In this document: piece after piece, positions 1 through 23,573 of the stretch
How positions within the stretch are numbered: position 1 is the stretch's first letter
Layout of the letters: each line of letters opens with the position of its first letter
Assembly (NCBI GenBank): GCA_964567265.1
Contig: CAZMLK010000001.1
Location: 262,574 to 326,573, forward strand
Source of the DNA: an uncultured Candidatus Saccharibacteria bacterium
Lineage (GTDB): Bacteria > Patescibacteriota > Minisyncoccia > Phycocordibacterales > UBA12088
Direction: 5' to 3'
DNA: 64,000 nt
Notes under the pieces: generated by a model
The model's input: the letters and a program-made list of their open reading frames with translations, nothing else
What the model was told of the DNA's origin: nothing
Databases searched by the model: none
Position numbers and translations under genes: made by a program

Positions 1-110
1 GTTTAAATAATAAAAAGAATAATAATCCTTGTGAGAAGCTATCCGCTGTAGAAGAGTGCAGCAAGCATCGGAAATAACGTACTGAATCGAATTGGCTTCT
101 AGGCTTCTCT

Positions 111-599
111 ATGGCAGAAACTAAAAAAAAAGTACAACTCAAGGTCGGAGACGTATTCGAAATACGTTTATCTGATGGCACCTATGCGTATGGTCAGTAC
201 TACGTACAGGATAAAGGGGGTGATGTCGGAAGGTTCTTTTCTTATAGAGGAAAAGAAAAAATTTCACCTGAAGAGGTCGTAAAATATCCATTGTTATTCC
301 CTCCGGTACATGTGGGGATACGTGCATCACTTAATGATGGAGTATGGGTGGTTGTAGGGAATGTACCAATAACAGATTTTGAAGAGCCCATGTTCCGAAG
401 TGAATTTTCTCTTACCCCGGGAAAGTTTGGAAAGTGGTATATCACACAGGGTGATAAGGTTGAAGAGGTGGGGTATGTGCTCCCAGAAAAATATAAAAAA
501 CTCGAACGCAAAGGCGTTTGGCCAGGTGACTGGGTAGATGAGCGTATTGAGAATGGAGGAAAAATACCAGAAAGATTGAAATGGATGGGCCAGTCCTGA
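111..599 (+). CDS. hypothetical protein, possible immunity protein of a displaced polymorphic-toxin cassette
   Basis: 162-aa ORF with ATG at 111 in an AT-rich block upstream of an orphan Rhs toxin tip. No recognisable catalytic motif. The function is inferred from context only. Confidence 0.45.
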   Translation: MAETKKKVQLKVGDVFEIRLSDGTYAYGQYYVQDKGGDVGRFFSYRGKEKISPEEVVKYPLLFPPVHVGIRASLNDGVWVVVGNVPITDFEEPMFRSEFSLTPGKFGKWYITQGDKVEEVGYVLPEKYKKLERKGVWPGDWVDERIENGGKIPERLKWMGQS

Positions 600-626
600 T
601 TGAAAGCAATAAAATAATAGTACAAT

Positions 627-896
627 ATGGAAATGGAATTTTTCTTGTATTTTTCTACAGAATCTAAAGCAGAGCAGGCGAAAAAAGAAATTCTAAAAGT
701 ATATCCGCAAGCTGTGATTGAAATTAGAAATGCTGCAGAAGGGGATCAGATTCTTTGTCTTACACGATTCACCGTCAATGGAGGTGCTCCAAGTGCGCTG
801 GATGAGATTGATGCGCGCCTTGAAAATATTTCACATCAATTTGGCGGTGACTATGACGGTTACGGTACTTCCCTAGAGGCAAATATTTCGGAATAA
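627..896 (+). CDS. hypothetical small protein, possible orphan immunity gene
   Basis: 89-aa ORF ending in TAA at 894-896, directly abutting the start of GC-rich Rhs-derived sequence at 897. Confidence 0.35.
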   Translation: MEMEFFLYFSTESKAEQAKKEILKVYPQAVIEIRNAAEGDQILCLTRFTVNGGAPSALDEIDARLENISHQFGGDYDGYGTSLEANISE

Positions 897-1026
897 ACCC
901 ACCTCCCAGACCAGTCTCTTCAAGGATGCCGTCACCTCCACCCTCGGCGCAGCGAGCTACGTCATCAGCACGACCACCGGCACGTATACCGACACCTACA
1001 CCGGCGGAGCCTTCCGCGACTGGTGC

Positions 1027-2028
1027 ATGGGCGCAGCCGCCTTCAAGCCGGCAAGCACCACTTCAAGTGCCACAACAACCACCCGCTATCTCCACACCGA
1101 CCACCTCGGCGGAACCCACTTCGTCTCTGATGCCACTGGTGCAGTCATCGAAGCCATCGACTACTACCCGTATGGACAGAATAGGGTTGATACCAAAGTA
1201 GGTACCTACACCGGAGAGAAGCGGAAGTACATTGGAGAAGAGTTTGACAGTGCGACGAATCTCTCGTACCTTAACGCGAGGTATTACAACGGGGCACGGG
1301 GGAACTTCCTGAGTGAGGATCCAGTATTCCTCGGCACTGAACAAAATCTTGAGGATCCTCAGGCTCTCAATTCCTATGCGTATGCGAATGGGAATCCGAT
1401 AACCAAAAGTGACCCTACTGGAAAGAGCTGGCAAACCTTTGGGCAAGGTGCCGCAAGTCCCTTTGTTTACGCTTATAATCATCCCTTACAGACAGCTGGA
1501 GTATTTGCATTGACCACTGTGGCAGTACTGGCAGCGCCTGTTACGGTCGCCGTGATAGGTGCTGCTGCTGGAGGTTATGCAATAGGAACAGCTGGCTTCA
1601 GTGCCTACACCGCTCCAAATGCAGATGCAAGAGATTACTATATTGGGCAGGCTCTCACATTCACTGGACTAACTGCTGTTGGAATCAAGGGGAGTTCCTC
1701 AGTAAGTGCTACAAAGTCAACATCACGGCAAACATCAGGCAGCCCAGATTTTATCGTAGATGTAAACGGACAAGTATTTCCTGTTCCCAAGGGGGCAACA
1801 GGACCAGTACCCGTTATAAATAAAGCTGGTAAGGTTACTGGCAGTGCATTTACTGGTGGTTCAGGCGGTGAAAATGGACAAGTCACTACGATGAGAATTA
1901 TGGATCCCAACTCAAGTAATCCGACTGGATATATAAAATACACAAATGCCAATAAACAAGGGGTGAATCCGAATACGGGAAAGACTGGCACACCTGCTGA
2001 GACGCATTACCCAGCAAACACTAAGTAA
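1027..2028 (+). CDS. orphan Rhs/YD-repeat C-terminal fragment with a variable toxin tip (no N-terminal Rhs body in the window)
   Basis: The translation carries the Rhs core C-terminal signature: TGTYTDTYTGGAF, RYLHTDHLGGTHFVSDATGAVIEAIDYYPYGQ, ARYYNGARGNFLSEDP and DPTGK. A hydrophobic stretch and an unrelated C-terminal domain follow. The frame is open from 877 and sequence homologous to Rhs cores starts at about 897. The first in-frame ATG is at 1027. Confidence 0.75.
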   Translation: MGAAAFKPASTTSSATTTTRYLHTDHLGGTHFVSDATGAVIEAIDYYPYGQNRVDTKVGTYTGEKRKYIGEEFDSATNLSYLNARYYNGARGNFLSEDPVFLGTEQNLEDPQALNSYAYANGNPITKSDPTGKSWQTFGQGAASPFVYAYNHPLQTAGVFALTTVAVLAAPVTVAVIGAAAGGYAIGTAGFSAYTAPNADARDYYIGQALTFTGLTAVGIKGSSSVSATKSTSRQTSGSPDFIVDVNGQVFPVPKGATGPVPVINKAGKVTGSAFTGGSGGENGQVTTMRIMDPNSSNPTGYIKYTNANKQGVNPNTGKTGTPAETHYPANTK

Positions 2029-2033
2029 CACTC

Positions 2034-2378
2034 ATGAATACCTTTGAACATGTCCTTAAGGGGAAAAAAGTAGAAGTTATCAACGATAAGCCAGAAAAAT
2101 ACGAAGACGGAACTGTCGGCAATGATTGGGGTCTGGGTTTCGAGGGAGATTGGGGCTTGGCAATCTATGCCAACAGGGTAATAAAAAATGCCGAGTCGCT
2201 GAAAGATTTCGTTGGTGAAAAACTTACTTCAATCCAAGAAACAGAGAATGCAGTTGTTTTCGACTTCACTCATGAAAAAAAAATAATAATTTCTTTGGAA
2301 GAAAAAGATTGGAACGGCCCGGAGATAATGATGCTACAACGAGATAATCAGATATATGTATGGGGTGTCGGTGAATAG
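2034..2378 (+). CDS. putative cognate immunity protein for the Rhs C-terminal toxin
   Basis: 114-aa acidic ORF starting 6 nt after the toxin stop, which is the typical toxin-immunity arrangement. It is AT-rich like the toxin tip. Confidence 0.55.
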   Translation: MNTFEHVLKGKKVEVINDKPEKYEDGTVGNDWGLGFEGDWGLAIYANRVIKNAESLKDFVGEKLTSIQETENAVVFDFTHEKKIIISLEEKDWNGPEIMMLQRDNQIYVWGVGE

Positions 2379-2447
2379 CCGGTAGCTGTAGTCAGAGATA
2401 CCTCCAATACTCTTTAAAAGGCAGGGCTCAATATTCTCCATATAATT

Positions 2448-2639
2448 ATGAAAAAGATACCAATAACGCTTCTGCCGATCGTTCTAATTTTGATCGTTCT
2501 CCTCCTGTTCACTTTCTACGTGCCGCAGAGCGGGGATTTGATTTCTAGTAAAGGTGACTATTACTTGGGGCAAGCGCTCGGCCTCCTAACAGTGCTTTCA
2601 CTCCTCTTGGATTTTATGAGGTTCCAGAATCGCAAGTAG
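2448..2639 (+). CDS. small membrane protein with two predicted TM helices
   Basis: 63-aa ORF with two hydrophobic segments, located in the AT-rich cassette region. Confidence 0.35.
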   Translation: MKKIPITLLPIVLILIVLLLFTFYVPQSGDLISSKGDYYLGQALGLLTVLSLLLDFMRFQNRK

Positions 2640-2683
2640 AAACCAGCTGTAGTCTGTCGCCGGGGACACATCCATTTGAAACT

Positions 2684-2908
2684 ATGAAAGAAGAAATACT
2701 AATGCCGCTTGATGAAGAGGGAATCACCGTCTATCGACCCGTTTTGGCATTAAGGATTAATGATCACATTTATAAAATTCTTGAAGATACCTTAAATAAC
2801 CAAAATGATGAAGTTTGGGCCTTTAAGCCAGGTGAAGTCGTAGAGGTTGTTGAAAAAGAATTCGAGAATAAAAAATCATTGGTTGCCGTAAATTTGTACA
2901 AAGAATAA
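2684..2908 (+). CDS. hypothetical small protein
   Basis: 74-aa ORF in the cassette region with the same orientation as its neighbours. Confidence 0.35.
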   Translation: MKEEILMPLDEEGITVYRPVLALRINDHIYKILEDTLNNQNDEVWAFKPGEVVEVVEKEFENKKSLVAVNLYKE

Positions 2909-2953
2909 TGTATTTAACGCAAAGTCAGTCGTAATTAAACTGAATTCAATTCT

Positions 2954-3214
2954 ATGAACGACGGAAATAAACTTACACCGGATGAAGCATATAAGGCTAT
3001 GTTTTTCTTTCTAGATCGATGGTGGAAAGAAGGAGGACAGAAAGAAGATAACATTGCAAATATACTCAGTAGTATGTCTCTTTTAGCAGATGGTTCTTCT
3101 GCGGACGGCGCTATGATGCAAGACTGGAAAAATAGTGTCAAAAAGGTTCTCGAGTATCGAGGAAGGGTGGAAACGGGGGAAGAACCATGGATGTTGAATT
3201 TGACTAATAATTAG
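2954..3214 (+). CDS. hypothetical small protein, possible orphan immunity gene
   Basis: 86-aa ORF. GGGGACACRTCCA-like junction motifs flank this gene and the previous one. Confidence 0.4.
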   Translation: MNDGNKLTPDEAYKAMFFFLDRWWKEGGQKEDNIANILSSMSLLADGSSADGAMMQDWKNSVKKVLEYRGRVETGEEPWMLNLTNN

Positions 3215-3382
3215 GTCTTAGAATGGTATTGTCTTGTGGCGGCGTAGGGGAGTAGCGGGGGGACACGTCCAATATTCCTCCAAAATCTGTGGAGTACTAT
3301 TCTCCATCTGTCCGGTAGGGGTGGGACCAACACCACTACTTGCTTTTTTCTGGGCTTGCTGCATAATGTCGCTCATTAAATT

Positions 3383-4258
3383 ATGACCGATTTAAAGCAG
3401 CAAATCCACGAGAATACCCTCCGTGCCTACATATGGATGGCCGCATTAACCACCATCATAGGCGTGCTTGGCACGCTGATTTCCTATTCATTTGATTGGG
3501 GACTCACTGGTACTGGCTCGTTTCTCCTTGTAGCCGGTTTCATCAATTTTCTTGCCTATTTCTTTTCAGATAAGCTCGTCCTTCGTGCAACGGGAGCAAA
3601 GCCTGTTTCTCTGGAACAGGCTCCTGAGCTCTACGAGATTGTCGAGCGGTTGTCACAAAAGGCCGGCATTCCTGTACCTAAAATATATCTCATTGACGAG
3701 CGTGCATTGAATGCGTTTGCCACAGGCAGAGACCAGAAGCATAGCGCGGTGGCAGTCTCAAGAGGTCTTCTTGAGCACATGACTGCAGATGAAGTTGAAG
3801 GAGTCGTCGCCCACGAGCTTTCACACATTCGGAATTACGATATGCGATTTGCAGCCATTGTTTCCGTACTTGTTGGCTTTGCGAGCATCGTAGCTGATCT
3901 GTACTGGTCATCTCGCATGGTCAGTGCAGCCCAGGAAAAAGATCGATCCGGCATACTGGCGATCATCGGACTTGTTCTTGCCGTGGCAACACCACTTACG
4001 GCCATGTTTATCCAGTTGGCAATATCGCGAAAGCGCGAATTCATTGCCGATGCTGCAGGAGCGACATTGACTGAGAATCCTAAAGCGTTGGCCTCGGCAT
4101 TAAAGAAGATTGCGCTTGATGTACGTCTCCCGTCGGGGATCAGTCCTGCTACTGCACATATTTATTTTTCCACCCCGAATAAAGACTCATTCATCGAGCG
4201 GCTGTTCGCAACCCATCCTCCAATCGAAGAACGAATCAATATCCTTGAGTCCAAATAA
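3383..4258 (+). CDS. htpX: HtpX-like M48 zinc metalloprotease
   Basis: Two N-terminal TM helices, a HELSH zinc motif (HEXXH) and a C-terminal ATHPPIEERI region typical of HtpX. A CATAAT-like -10 lies upstream near 3364. Confidence 0.9.
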   Translation: MTDLKQQIHENTLRAYIWMAALTTIIGVLGTLISYSFDWGLTGTGSFLLVAGFINFLAYFFSDKLVLRATGAKPVSLEQAPELYEIVERLSQKAGIPVPKIYLIDERALNAFATGRDQKHSAVAVSRGLLEHMTADEVEGVVAHELSHIRNYDMRFAAIVSVLVGFASIVADLYWSSRMVSAAQEKDRSGILAIIGLVLAVATPLTAMFIQLAISRKREFIADAAGATLTENPKALASALKKIALDVRLPSGISPATAHIYFSTPNKDSFIERLFATHPPIEERINILESK

Positions 4259-4284
4259 TCTAGATTAAAAAATTCAATACGAGC

Positions 4285-4905
4285 ATGTCAGATTCAACTA
4301 CAGCAGAAGCGCCAATAAAGATCGGAAATCACACGCAGGATATCGTGAGGTGTGCTAATTGCAACATGGAAGGAGTTGTCGGCGATTTCTTCACCTATCA
4401 GACGAAGGACGGCTCAGATACCTACCTCTGTTCAGACTGCCGCGTCAAAGCAAATGAGACGCTTGAGGCAGAGAAGAATCAAATCAATATGGTGTATGCG
4501 GCCGGGCTCGGTATCGTTGCAGCGATCGCGGGTGGAATCGCGTGGTACTATGTCACCCTGCTCACGAACATGGAATTCGGATATGCAGCGCTCGGACTCG
4601 GATATCTGGTCGGATATGCAGTATTTATCGGTGCTGGGAAGCGACGCGGACAAAAGTTGCAGATCCTGAGTGTGGTATTGACTTTGCTTAGTATTTTCTG
4701 GGCAGAATACTTCATTTTCAGTCACGGACTCTTCGAATACATGAGCGCGAATCCCTCTCAATTTGATTGGTGGGATGGTGCTAAAATTTGGCTAGATCCG
4801 TGGTCTTCTATCTTCCTCGAAACATTTATCTCTCCAATCAGCGCACTTATTTACGCAATCGGCCTCTACGTAGCGTACACTGTGTGCAAGCCTCAAAAAC
4901 TCTAA
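4285..4905 (+). CDS. zinc-ribbon membrane protein (N-terminal CxxC...CxxC followed by about four TM helices)
   Basis: CANCN...CSDC motif followed by hydrophobic helices. Followed by a strong terminator. Confidence 0.6.
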   Translation: MSDSTTAEAPIKIGNHTQDIVRCANCNMEGVVGDFFTYQTKDGSDTYLCSDCRVKANETLEAEKNQINMVYAAGLGIVAAIAGGIAWYYVTLLTNMEFGYAALGLGYLVGYAVFIGAGKRRGQKLQILSVVLTLLSIFWAEYFIFSHGLFEYMSANPSQFDWWDGAKIWLDPWSSIFLETFISPISALIYAIGLYVAYTVCKPQKL

Positions 4906-4914
4906 AATAGACCC

Positions 4915-4943
4915 AAAAAAACCTCCTATAGGAGGTTTTTTTG
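4915..4943 (+). terminator. rho-independent terminator (ACCTCCTATAGGAGGT stem plus T-run)
   Basis: Perfect palindrome flanked by an A-run and a T-run, so it can act in both directions. Confidence 0.7.
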
Positions 4944-5053
4944 TTGGGGTGTGGTGGAAATGGCGCGTACAGAATCCAAAGTAATCCACAGTTCGGGAAT
5001 ATGTTACACTGTACTTTCTACAGTCATTTATACGCATCACGGAAGCCAACAGC

Positions 5054-5572
5054 ATGAACGATCTCTATACATACACGGTCCCCATCTTCACCAAGATGCT
5101 CGGCGGGCTCGACAACGTGCTTACCAAGGCCGAGGCCTACGCGAATGCCGAAGGCATCGACAGCGAAGTCCTCTTCGACGCGAAGCTCGCGCCGGACATG
5201 TATCCGTTCATCCGGCAGGTCCAGATCGCATGCGACAACGCGAAGGGCGCGACCGCCCGGCTTGGCGGCGTCGAGAATCCGAAGTACGAGGACAATGAGC
5301 GGACCTTCAATGATCTCCATGCGCGCATCGCGAAGACGCTCGAGTTCATCAAGTCGGTACCCGAGTCAGCATTCAAGGATGCGGCGACCCGCGAGGTCAC
5401 GCTTCCGTACTTCCCGGGCAAGTACTTCACTGGCTTCGATTATGCCCGCGAATACGCGCTCCCGAACTTCTTCTTCCATACCACCATCGCGTACGGCATT
5501 CTCAGGAGCAAAGGCGTGCCGCTTGGCAAGCCGGATTATATGAACGGACTCTCGCTTAAGAATATCGGCTAA
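5054..5572 (+). CDS. DUF1993 family protein (DinB/YfiT-like fold)
   Basis: 172 aa. LAPDMYPFIRQVQIACD and the length and sequence pattern match DUF1993. Confidence 0.7.
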   Translation: MNDLYTYTVPIFTKMLGGLDNVLTKAEAYANAEGIDSEVLFDAKLAPDMYPFIRQVQIACDNAKGATARLGGVENPKYEDNERTFNDLHARIAKTLEFIKSVPESAFKDAATREVTLPYFPGKYFTGFDYAREYALPNFFFHTTIAYGILRSKGVPLGKPDYMNGLSLKNIG

Positions 5573-21953: not shown

Positions 21954-22712
21954 ATGGAACACATCCTCGAAATCTCGAATCTCTACAAGCACTTCGGCAA
22001 GGGCCGGAAGAAGAATGCTGAGGCGCTGAAGGACATCACGCTCACGGTCCGCTCCGGGGAATTCTTCGTGCTCCTCGGACCTTCGGGATCAGGGAAGTCG
22101 ACGCTCCTCAGGATCGCCTGCGGGCTCGATACGGCGTCCTCAGGCACCGTGAAATACCCACATCTCCTTGAAAAGGACGACATGAGCTTCGTGTTCCAGC
22201 AATTCGCGCTCCTTCCGTGGCTCACGGTCGGCGAGAACGTAGAGCTCGGCCTCATCGGACGGAATATTCCGGAACAGACCCGCGACATGCTCGTGAAGCG
22301 GGAGCTTGAGGAATTCGGGCTCTCCAAATTCCGTCACTCGCATACGCGGAATCTCTCGGGCGGCATGAAGCAGCGCGTCGGGCTCGCCCGCGCCTTCGTG
22401 ACCGAGCCGAAGCTCATGTTTCTCGATGAGCCGTTCTCTGAGCTCGACTTCTTCACCGCAGAGGATCTGCGCAAGGAACTCCTCCGTCTCTCGCGCGAGC
22501 GCGGCATGACCGTCATTATGGTGAGTCACAATATCCAGGAAGCGGTTGCCCTCGCCGACCGTATCAGCGTCCTCACTTCACGTCCCGGGCAGCTCAAGGA
22601 AGTCATCGAGAACACGCTCCCATACCCGCGCATCCCACGCTCACCAGAATTCTTCGCAATGGAAGATCGTCTTTCGGCGCTTTTGAAGATCCCTGATGAA
22701 TCGAATCATTGA
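21954..22712 (+). CDS. ABC transporter ATP-binding protein (NitT/TauT family)
   Basis: GPSGSGKST, LSGGMKQRV and LDEPFSELD motifs. Confidence 0.9.
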   Translation: MEHILEISNLYKHFGKGRKKNAEALKDITLTVRSGEFFVLLGPSGSGKSTLLRIACGLDTASSGTVKYPHLLEKDDMSFVFQQFALLPWLTVGENVELGLIGRNIPEQTRDMLVKRELEEFGLSKFRHSHTRNLSGGMKQRVGLARAFVTEPKLMFLDEPFSELDFFTAEDLRKELLRLSRERGMTVIMVSHNIQEAVALADRISVLTSRPGQLKEVIENTLPYPRIPRSPEFFAMEDRLSALLKIPDESNH

Positions 22713-22992
22713 AAAAATGAGTCAAAACTCCATCATGCAAATCGTCTTTCTTGTCCTGGGTATCTGGGGAGTGTACCGCGGATTTATGATTACCTACTCA
22801 AAGAAGTATTTTCTCGAGAAAGTTCTGCGAGTTTATGACATAGACAGTGATACTGCTTACGAAAAAATTCCAATATCCACTCGAAAATACCTACGGTATC
22901 GCGGCGGATTGGGAGGCCTCGGCGTAGGAATTATTTTGCTCGGTCTTTTCTGTGTAATGACGTTTATTGATTGTCACGGATTTTGTAAATAA
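22696..22992 (+). CDS. small membrane protein
   Basis: 98-aa ORF, low GC, two TM helices, overlaps the ATPase stop. Confidence 0.3.
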   Translation: MNRIIEKMSQNSIMQIVFLVLGIWGVYRGFMITYSKKYFLEKVLRVYDIDSDTAYEKIPISTRKYLRYRGGLGGLGVGIILLGLFCVMTFIDCHGFCK

Positions 22993-23070
22993 GCAATAAC
23001 TTACACCGTCCCCGACAGTTAGGAACATCTTCATGGCCGCAATTTTTTTCTACAGTCGGAAGTACTAAGA

Positions 23071-23119
23071 AAAAACAAACCACCGCAAAGGCTATGCCTT
23101 TGCGGTGGTTTGTTTTTTT
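23071..23119. terminator. bidirectional terminator (long perfect palindrome with A and T flanks)
   Basis: AAAAAACAAACCACCGCAAAGGC tat GCCTTTGCGGTGGTTTGTTTTTTT. Confidence 0.7.
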
Positions 23120-23132
23120 AAAGTCATTCAGT

Positions 23133-23573
23133 TTAGCGCGGAATTGCAGGGCTCCCTGCACCGCGGAGCTGGATCGATTTCGCGGTGAGGCTACCGTCGG
23201 TGTTGCCGGTGCCCATGACGGTCACTTCTGTGCCCGCCGCGAGATCGGCAAGCGAGCCTGCCGCTGACTTGAGCACTTCGGTCGAGGTCGCGAAGAGCAC
23301 GATCTTGGTGCTGCCGTCCATCATCTTGAGGGTCAGGCTGGTGTCATCCTTCGAGAGGATCGCGCCTGAAGCAAATCCGGTTCCGCGCGCGAAATTGCCC
23401 CGCGCTGCGCCGCCGCGCTGTCCGCCTGGACCGCCCTGGAATGCGCCATTCGCGAAGGCATCCGCGCGGGACGCGCGCGCGTAGCGCATGCCAGCATAAA
23501 ACGAACTGCTTCCAACGACAAGAAGTGCGATCACGAACGGCACCAACAGCTTCGGCTCCATGTATTTTTTCAT
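23133..23573 (-). CDS. secreted protein of unknown function, last gene of the efflux operon
   Basis: Signal peptide followed by a Gly-rich region. Co-oriented and tightly linked with the MacB-like genes. Confidence 0.5.
   Translation of the reverse strand: MKKYMEPKLLVPFVIALLVVGSSSFYAGMRYARASRADAFANGAFQGGPGGQRGGAARGNFARGTGFASGAILSKDDTSLTLKMMDGSTKIVLFATSTEVLKSAAGSLADLAAGTEVTVMGTGNTDGSLTAKSIQLRGAGSPAIPR

Follow-up and report, generated by a model that had tools for sequence, protein, structure and literature searches.

A probably switchable orphan Rhs toxin/immunity cassette in a Patescibacteria genome

Displaced toxin ends and their immunity genes are found 3′ of the active gene, each with a conserved stub, in orphan cdiA-CT/cdiI modules and in the type VI secretion system immunity arrays of Vibrio cholerae. 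Here we analysed a 64,000-nt stretch of the genome of an uncultured Patescibacteria bacterium (GenBank assembly GCA_964567265.1, contig CAZMLK010000001.1, positions 262,574 to 326,573), called the window below. Positions 898-2378 of the window probably represent an orphan Rhs toxin/immunity cassette that can be switched by recombination with an upstream rhs copy. The host is of the Paceibacteria type; at 70-72% identity, its UvrB protein has its best named matches in Kaiserbacteria, Paceibacterota and Adlerbacteria. The cassette and the two small genes that precede it in the window lie on the + strand. In contrast to the cdiA-CT/cdiI modules and the V. cholerae arrays, where the carrier is CdiA or VgrG-linked effectors, the carrier here is a Rhs/YD shell, and no CdiA similarity was found in the cassette.

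The layout is already known from Salmonella Typhimurium LT2 (rhs-main/rhs-CT-orphan), where recombination fusing the main gene to the orphan tip has been shown experimentally (Koskiniemi et al. 2014, PMC3967940), and the cassette is an ordinary example of it in an unusual host. As with the LT2 orphan, an rhs copy of like orientation lies 5′ of the fragment and a probable immunity gene of its own lies 3′ of it; some of the conserved coding sequence is retained, and signals for translation initiation and export are missing (PMC3967940). In LT2, homology between main gene and orphan permits a deletion by which the orphan tip becomes joined to the main gene (PMC3967940). Unlike in LT2, the host belongs to the Patescibacteria, has a contig of about 0.62 Mb and gives no evidence of type VI secretion, and the copies are separated by three small genes (a 138-aa open reading frame (ORF), an Imm26 gene and an RraB-like ORF). 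Furthermore, fusion was observed in LT2, whereas the present locus is known from sequence alone and its main gene is inferred. The original prediction for this DNA had placed a recombination boundary between a conserved core end and a variable toxin tip at position 897. Its interpretation was right in substance and is partly supported by our analysis, with the corrections given below.

A truncated rhs fragment in a low-GC island

The window has an average GC content of about 57%, and its positions 1-5050 form a low-GC island (40-50%). At 897/898 the GC content rises from about 0.40 to 0.60-0.66 (100-nt windows: 0.43 for 801-900, 0.61 for 901-1000 and 0.66 for 951-1050). The sharp step that had been predicted at 897 was readily seen in a window-wide plot, where the GC difference between 250-nt flanks amounted to +0.224. 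Steps of at least this size occur at only two places in the 64 kb, 842-897 and 23174-23182, corresponding to 0.016% of all positions. The GC content at third codon positions (GC3) is 0.289 in the ORF upstream of the step (627-896) and 0.739 in 898-1232, reaching 0.87-0.93 in the first 160 nt of this stretch. Housekeeping genes of the window (RNR, UvrA, UvrB, ABC) have a GC3 of 0.73-0.83, and the genes flanking 898-1232 have a GC3 of 0.29-0.39. Given the GC content of the whole window and the low-GC character of positions 1-5050, the apparently GC-rich stretch is therefore host-like sequence inside foreign-like sequence. Downstream, GC3 is 0.508 in 1234-1422 and 0.34 and 0.31 in the toxin tip, which bears out the predicted combination of a host-like 5′ part (0.74) with a foreign-like tip (0.31-0.34). 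The predicted return to AT-rich sequence after about 1250 is real as well, but it is gradual and has no sharp edge at this position. GC3 is about 0.9 up to ~1060, 0.5-0.8 up to ~1320 and about 0.33 thereafter, with the best single change-point at 1312-1336.

A step of this kind could be an artefact, produced either by an assembly chimera at a repeat or by a peptide rich in Thr, Ala and Gly. The encoded peptide is indeed rich in these residues. However, the shift is strongest at third codon positions (from 0.29 to 0.87-0.93). Since the step sits at synonymous sites, amino-acid composition is not its cause, and amino-acid bias as the source of the GC rise was ruled out by the GC3 values. Metagenome-assembled genomes can be mis-joined at repeats, and 899-1232 acts as a repeat in assembly graphs. 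Against a mis-join, an independent assembly contig (L001; 2,105 nt, from two samples and two sequencing runs) matches window positions 1-928 at 100% identity and spans 897/898, and the arrangement in the window is the only linear one that uses all four arms of the graph. We consider an artefact extremely improbable.

Frame 1 is open from 877 to 2028. As had been predicted, no ATG precedes position 1027, and GTG and TTG are likewise missing from 877-1026, so that the earliest candidate start is the ATG at 1027-1029. The predicted lack of a start of its own was confirmed in that no start codon lies 5′ of the conserved sequence. The frame-1 codons 877-897 show no Rhs homology and represent the 3′ end of ORF 627-896 read out of frame; this ORF is terminated by the TAA at 894-896, 2 nt before the homology handle described below. 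The left junction (897/898), where foreign-like DNA meets host-like rhs sequence, is marked by the step in GC and GC3 and by the end of L001 at 928 (898 + 30), and is the point where the rhs reading frame was truncated. A search for an insertion footprint at the junction (short direct or inverted repeats) gave chance-level matches only.

The predicted nature of the ORF as an Rhs C-terminal fragment is well supported by the Rhs-associated core domain at 1162-1422 (NCBIfam TIGR03696.1, E 1.9e-17, 63.6 bits versus a cut-off of 32.5), which corresponds to residues 96-182 of the frame starting at 877. Rhs toxin tips are preceded by a PxxxxDPxG motif. The core in the window terminates in PITKSDPTG (1396-1422), a motif read from the sequence, and the next residue is K and not L (1396-1425); homologues have DPTGQ, DPSGL or DPDGR at this site. 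The host-like part of the fragment (899-1232, 334 bp, GC3 0.74) is termed the homology handle. Its extent was assigned from contig forks (see below) and from its alignment with the C-terminal region of a full-length 2434-aa Rhs protein of a Saccharibacteria relative (L004). The handle is made up of three parts, namely the last part of an inserted, lineage-specific domain, a linker rich in Thr and Ser, and the first part of the Rhs-associated core (RYLHTDHLGG...DYYPYG...). Positions 899-1060 align with the end of a domain of ~190 aa without Pfam match, which is placed just before the core in full-length relatives; within L004 the sequence ...TNRTSLYKDKVTSTLGAASY... matches ...TSQTSLFKDAVTSTLGAASY... 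in the window. Only the last ~55 codons of this ~190-aa domain are kept. The view of the whole 5′ stretch as a conserved core end thus holds from 1162 onwards, while the first ~55 codons belong to the inserted domain.

Full-length Rhs/YD toxins have a long YD-repeat shell and an N-terminal export or delivery domain in frame. The ORF has neither, and because its Rhs homology starts only at 899 it is a fragment and not a full-length Rhs. A Pfam scan detected no YD-repeat family in the fragment at E<=0.1; a precomputed table gives PF25023 for its 333-aa product (P0001). This product, on record as a called gene, starts at the first in-frame ATG (1027), and the ORF might accordingly be translated alone, as an independent gene for a stand-alone toxin. 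In line with this idea, tip homologues in Pseudomonas are separate ORFs of ~316 aa. The lack of a Shine-Dalgarno motif is uninformative, since most genes of the window, housekeeping genes included, have no such motif within 25 nt 5′ of the start, and a missing site before ATG 1027 is therefore no argument for silence. However, in-frame Rhs homology and host codon usage extend 43 codons 5′ of the ATG, to 899, and Met-1027 aligns with an internal Met of L004 and of the homologue P0003. No signal-peptide-like segment follows Met-1027, unlike in the Pseudomonas ORFs, which lie 24 nt after an RHS-repeat gene. No + strand promoter-like site was found upstream, which is a weak test, as the sigma-70 consensus scan gave the count expected from shuffled sequence and is uninformative. 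In addition, no delivery route is known for such a protein without the shell and N-terminal domains. An independent gene is thus very unlikely; ATG 1027 is most likely an internal Met codon, as the alignments suggest, and the 333-aa gene call is probably a shortened reading of the orphan fragment.

The upstream rhs copy and a possible tip switch

A search of the 64-kb window with blastn and tblastn revealed no rhs paralogue. The paralogous rhs core that had been expected does exist, but it is located 2,379 bp upstream, just outside the window, on contig L001, which reaches 1,177 nt further upstream than the window. L001 opens with a second core end (TYTGEKRKYIGEEFD...NARYYNGARGNFLSEDPVF...DPSGE) in the same orientation. 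The tip following this core end is a Tox-REase-7 nuclease domain (E 3.2e-13), and the 138-aa ORF, the Imm26 gene and the RraB-like gene come after it in this order. Conserved rhs coding sequence is thus partly retained in the fragment and has a homologous counterpart in a further rhs copy.

Aligned in register, the two copies are identical (100%) over 1203-1232. The adjoining core segment (1233-1326; GC3 0.6-0.8) is diverged but conserved, with 82% nucleotide identity to the upstream copy and codon differences that are mostly silent (12 synonymous and 2 non-synonymous). Identity drops to 59% in the variable end of the core (1327-1422; GC3 about 0.4) and to 26%, the random level, beyond it. Position 897, proposed as the boundary between conserved and variable sequence, is the left end of the handle, created by truncation. 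Instead of a single boundary, the transition is stepwise, with steps at 1232/1233, near 1326 (after ...SEDPV) and at 1422, where the motif ends.

The extent of the repeat can be deduced from the contigs. L001 and the orphan-bearing contigs L002 and L003 all begin at the equivalent of position 1203, share exactly 30 nt and fork at 1233, and L001 ends at 928, 30 nt past 898. These end points indicate a k=31 fork and join around a sequence that occurs in two contexts. From them we infer an exact direct repeat of 334 bp at 899-1232, the other copy of which is situated just before L001.

Besides the uninformative Shine-Dalgarno site, the following points weigh against a switchable cassette. The direct comparison of the copies covers 30 nt (1203-1232), and identity over 899-1202 is deduced from contig end points. 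A different strain present in these samples could be the source of the repeat's second context. L001 reaches only the core end and tip of the upstream copy, so that a full-length rhs body upstream is unseen. Moreover, the protein of the upstream copy is absent from the protein collection searched, and the exact handle DNA gave no match in the metagenome collection.

We nevertheless favour a switchable orphan cassette, and its likely mode of action can be outlined as follows. Because start codon, export signal and shell are missing, the toxin of the cassette would at present stay silent, while the immunity gene would still be protective. That expression would require recombination, as the original prediction held, is an analogy drawn from Salmonella (PMC3967940). 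RecA-type recombination between the 334-bp repeats, with the crossover inside 899-1232, would delete 2,379 bp comprising the Tox-REase-7 tip, the 138-aa ORF, the Imm26 gene and the RraB-like gene. As a result, the upstream Rhs body would be joined in frame to the membrane module and the PT7-like-fold domain of the orphan tip, and the cell would deploy a different toxin. The way in which identity decays in steps, with mostly synonymous differences over 1233-1326, suggests that the tip probably arrived together with a stretch of donor core sequence. Subsequently, the segment 899-1232 may have originated as a duplicate of resident sequence, or homogenisation with the resident gene may have taken place.

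The toxin tip and its immunity gene

The tip consists of two modules. Module 1 (1423-1740) is a hydrophobic, Gly/Ala-rich predicted membrane segment with a linker. It is shared by the homologues P0002 and P0015, whose C-termini differ, and homologues carry it ahead of other toxin domains. An AlphaFold2 (AF2) model of the module shows two helices at low confidence. Module 2 (1741-2028, stop codon included) is a toxin domain of ~95 aa at the C-terminus and belongs to an uncurated family. This family comprises 488 cluster representatives (E<=1e-3) in which the domain is always C-terminal. The carriers range from about 70 to 2877 aa, and a dozen of them exceed 1,400 aa; elsewhere, full-length proteins of 1,485-2,877 aa end in a member of the family.

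By sequence, the tip has no match in Pfam or the Protein Data Bank (PDB). Module 2 matches the polymorphic-toxin DNase PT7(Bc) (PDB 8owu; preprint 10.1101/2021.10.19.465003) at the fold level only, with an identity of 17-20% and no sequence-detectable similarity. The fold of the domain resembles that of the PT7 DNase, and DNase activity is to be taken as a lead only.

The probable cognate immunity gene (2034-2378, 114 aa) starts 5 nt after the toxin stop codon. Its product has no Pfam match, but it resembles products encoded directly 3′ of tip homologues by the ENA scaffold L159 and by Pseudomonas L161 (25-29% identity, pairwise E about 1e-7). Because this similarity, weak as it is, is specific to ORFs that follow homologous tips, ORF 2034-2378 probably encodes the immunity protein for this tip. 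The toxin/immunity pairing is thus conserved across two other phyla-level contexts.

In Pseudomonas L160 and L161 (966-4951), the tip homologues are separate 316-aa ORFs with a signal-peptide-like N-terminus. They start 24 nt after an RHS-repeat gene of 738-1003 aa, corresponding to a split Rhs arrangement. L159 is likewise split (1538 aa, then 473 aa).

The state of the tip bears on whether the fragment is an inert relic, that is, an rhs end displaced by a newer tip, the toxin part of which is never reused and in which only the immunity gene matters, against neighbours using this toxin. The absence of a start codon or export signal would fit this explanation. Orphan fragments are also very common in relatives, some of them further shortened or degraded, and toxin-less orphan immunity genes (Imm26 and possibly the RraB-like ORF) adjoin the fragment. 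However, the frame runs for 1,131 nt without a stop codon despite the AT-rich third positions of the tip, and 23 of the 23 invariant residues of the toxin family are retained. The handle is apparently identical to the neighbouring copy, which points to recent duplication or gene conversion and not to decay. An inert relic is therefore unlikely, though less so than an independent gene, and we regard the fragment as a stored and probably reusable tip.

Orphan arrays in Patescibacteria relatives and other features of the island

A protein scan of genomes of the Genome Taxonomy Database (GTDB) and of metagenomes identified the closest relatives of the core end, which are 56-58% identical and mostly belong to Patescibacteria; the same species was not found in these collections. 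In 75 GTDB loci we counted 40 full-length copies, defined by 800 or more open codons upstream, and 50 short ones. Of the 50 short copies, 13 have a full-length copy less than 10 kb 5′ of them on their own strand, and a start codon 5′ of the core is missing from 14. Numbers for the metagenome loci were similar. In some short copies (L025, L038 and L073) just 17-43 codons follow the core. Where orphan handles could be compared with the main gene, they were 99.6%, 96.9% and 95.8% identical at L042, 95.9% identical at L039 and 100% identical over 104 bp at L044. At L042, identity stops right after ...SQDP(V), which is homologous to the GC3 change-point of the window after ...SEDPV, near 1326. As judged from these comparisons, the window is a typical member of a common arrangement in Patescibacteria relatives.

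The 2434-aa Saccharibacteria relative L004 (3872-11176) begins with a signal-like segment, followed by SpvB (PF03534, E 1.2e-16), FG-GAP-like repeats and YD repeats. Towards the C-terminus the order is YD repeats, the ~190-aa domain, Rhs core and tip. P0014 holds two copies of a domain similar to the ~190-aa domain. The architecture of L004 (SpvB, YD repeats, core and tip) resembles that of fused TcB/TcC proteins of Tc toxins. WapA-like Rhs/YD proteins of Gram-positive bacteria are exported by the Sec pathway, and by analogy Sec export may be assumed for relatives of the L004 type. Unlike TcB/TcC and WapA, the relatives possess the additional ~190-aa domain before the core.

It is tempting to extend these observations to a broader, tentative proposal, for which we see somewhat less than even chances. 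Ultra-small Patescibacteria (the contig studied here is ~0.62 Mb) may keep TcB/TcC-like Rhs arsenals that are switchable by recombination, consisting of a main gene and start-less orphans with near-identical handles of 100-390 bp. Their cassettes would be shared with Proteobacteria and include the widespread uncurated family with a PT7-DNase-like fold, and delivery, perhaps directed at hosts or at competing epibionts, would not involve a type VI system. A description of Rhs orphan arrays in Patescibacteria was not found in the literature searched. Patescibacteria have minimal genomes and a barely described antagonism toolkit. If switching occurs in these bacteria, it bears on how episymbionts compete or attack. 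The locus provides a clean, coordinate-level example of the storage and probable exchange of Rhs tips, with a handle, stepwise identity decay, and a foreign tip with its immunity gene. It also draws attention to an uncurated toxin domain family and its immunity family.

Two further small genes precede the fragment within the window. The Imm26-family immunity gene (111-599, 162 aa; PF15428, E 7.5e-11, 42.7 bits versus a cut-off of 23.3; GC3 0.356) lies between the two rhs core ends and has no adjacent toxin of its own. The RraB-like ORF (627-896, 89 aa; PF06877, E 2.3e-10) is, judging by its position, possibly another orphan immunity gene; RraB-like proteins acting as immunity proteins were not found in the literature searched. 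The 89-aa RraB-like product is recorded from the independent assembly only, and the Imm26 and 138-aa products are recorded from both assemblies. The RraB-like gene may be called differently on the source record.

Downstream of the immunity gene, three small low-GC ORFs (63, 74 and 86 aa) occupy 2448-3214 before htpX. They have no family match and may be further orphan immunity genes. They are followed by a gene for an HtpX-like M48 peptidase (3383-4258) and by a zinc-ribbon/membrane ORF (4285-4905), with a GC3 of 0.48-0.53 compared to 0.73-0.83 in host genes. The low GC3 at 3383-4905 indicates that the island extends from outside the window to about 5050 and contains more than toxin/immunity genes. 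Directly after the gene at 4285-4905, a perfect 15+15 nt palindrome (CAAAAAAACCTCCTA|TAGGAGGTTTTTTTG) is present at 4914-4943, which resembles a bidirectional terminator. Contig L003 stops precisely at this palindrome, and GC3 is back at the host level ~100 nt later, at 5054. A second sharp GC dip was observed at 22640-23180, where the GC content changes by -0.20 at 22639 and by +0.23 at 23179; the dip comprises non-coding sequence and an ORF of 98 aa (22696-22992) that has two hydrophobic segments.

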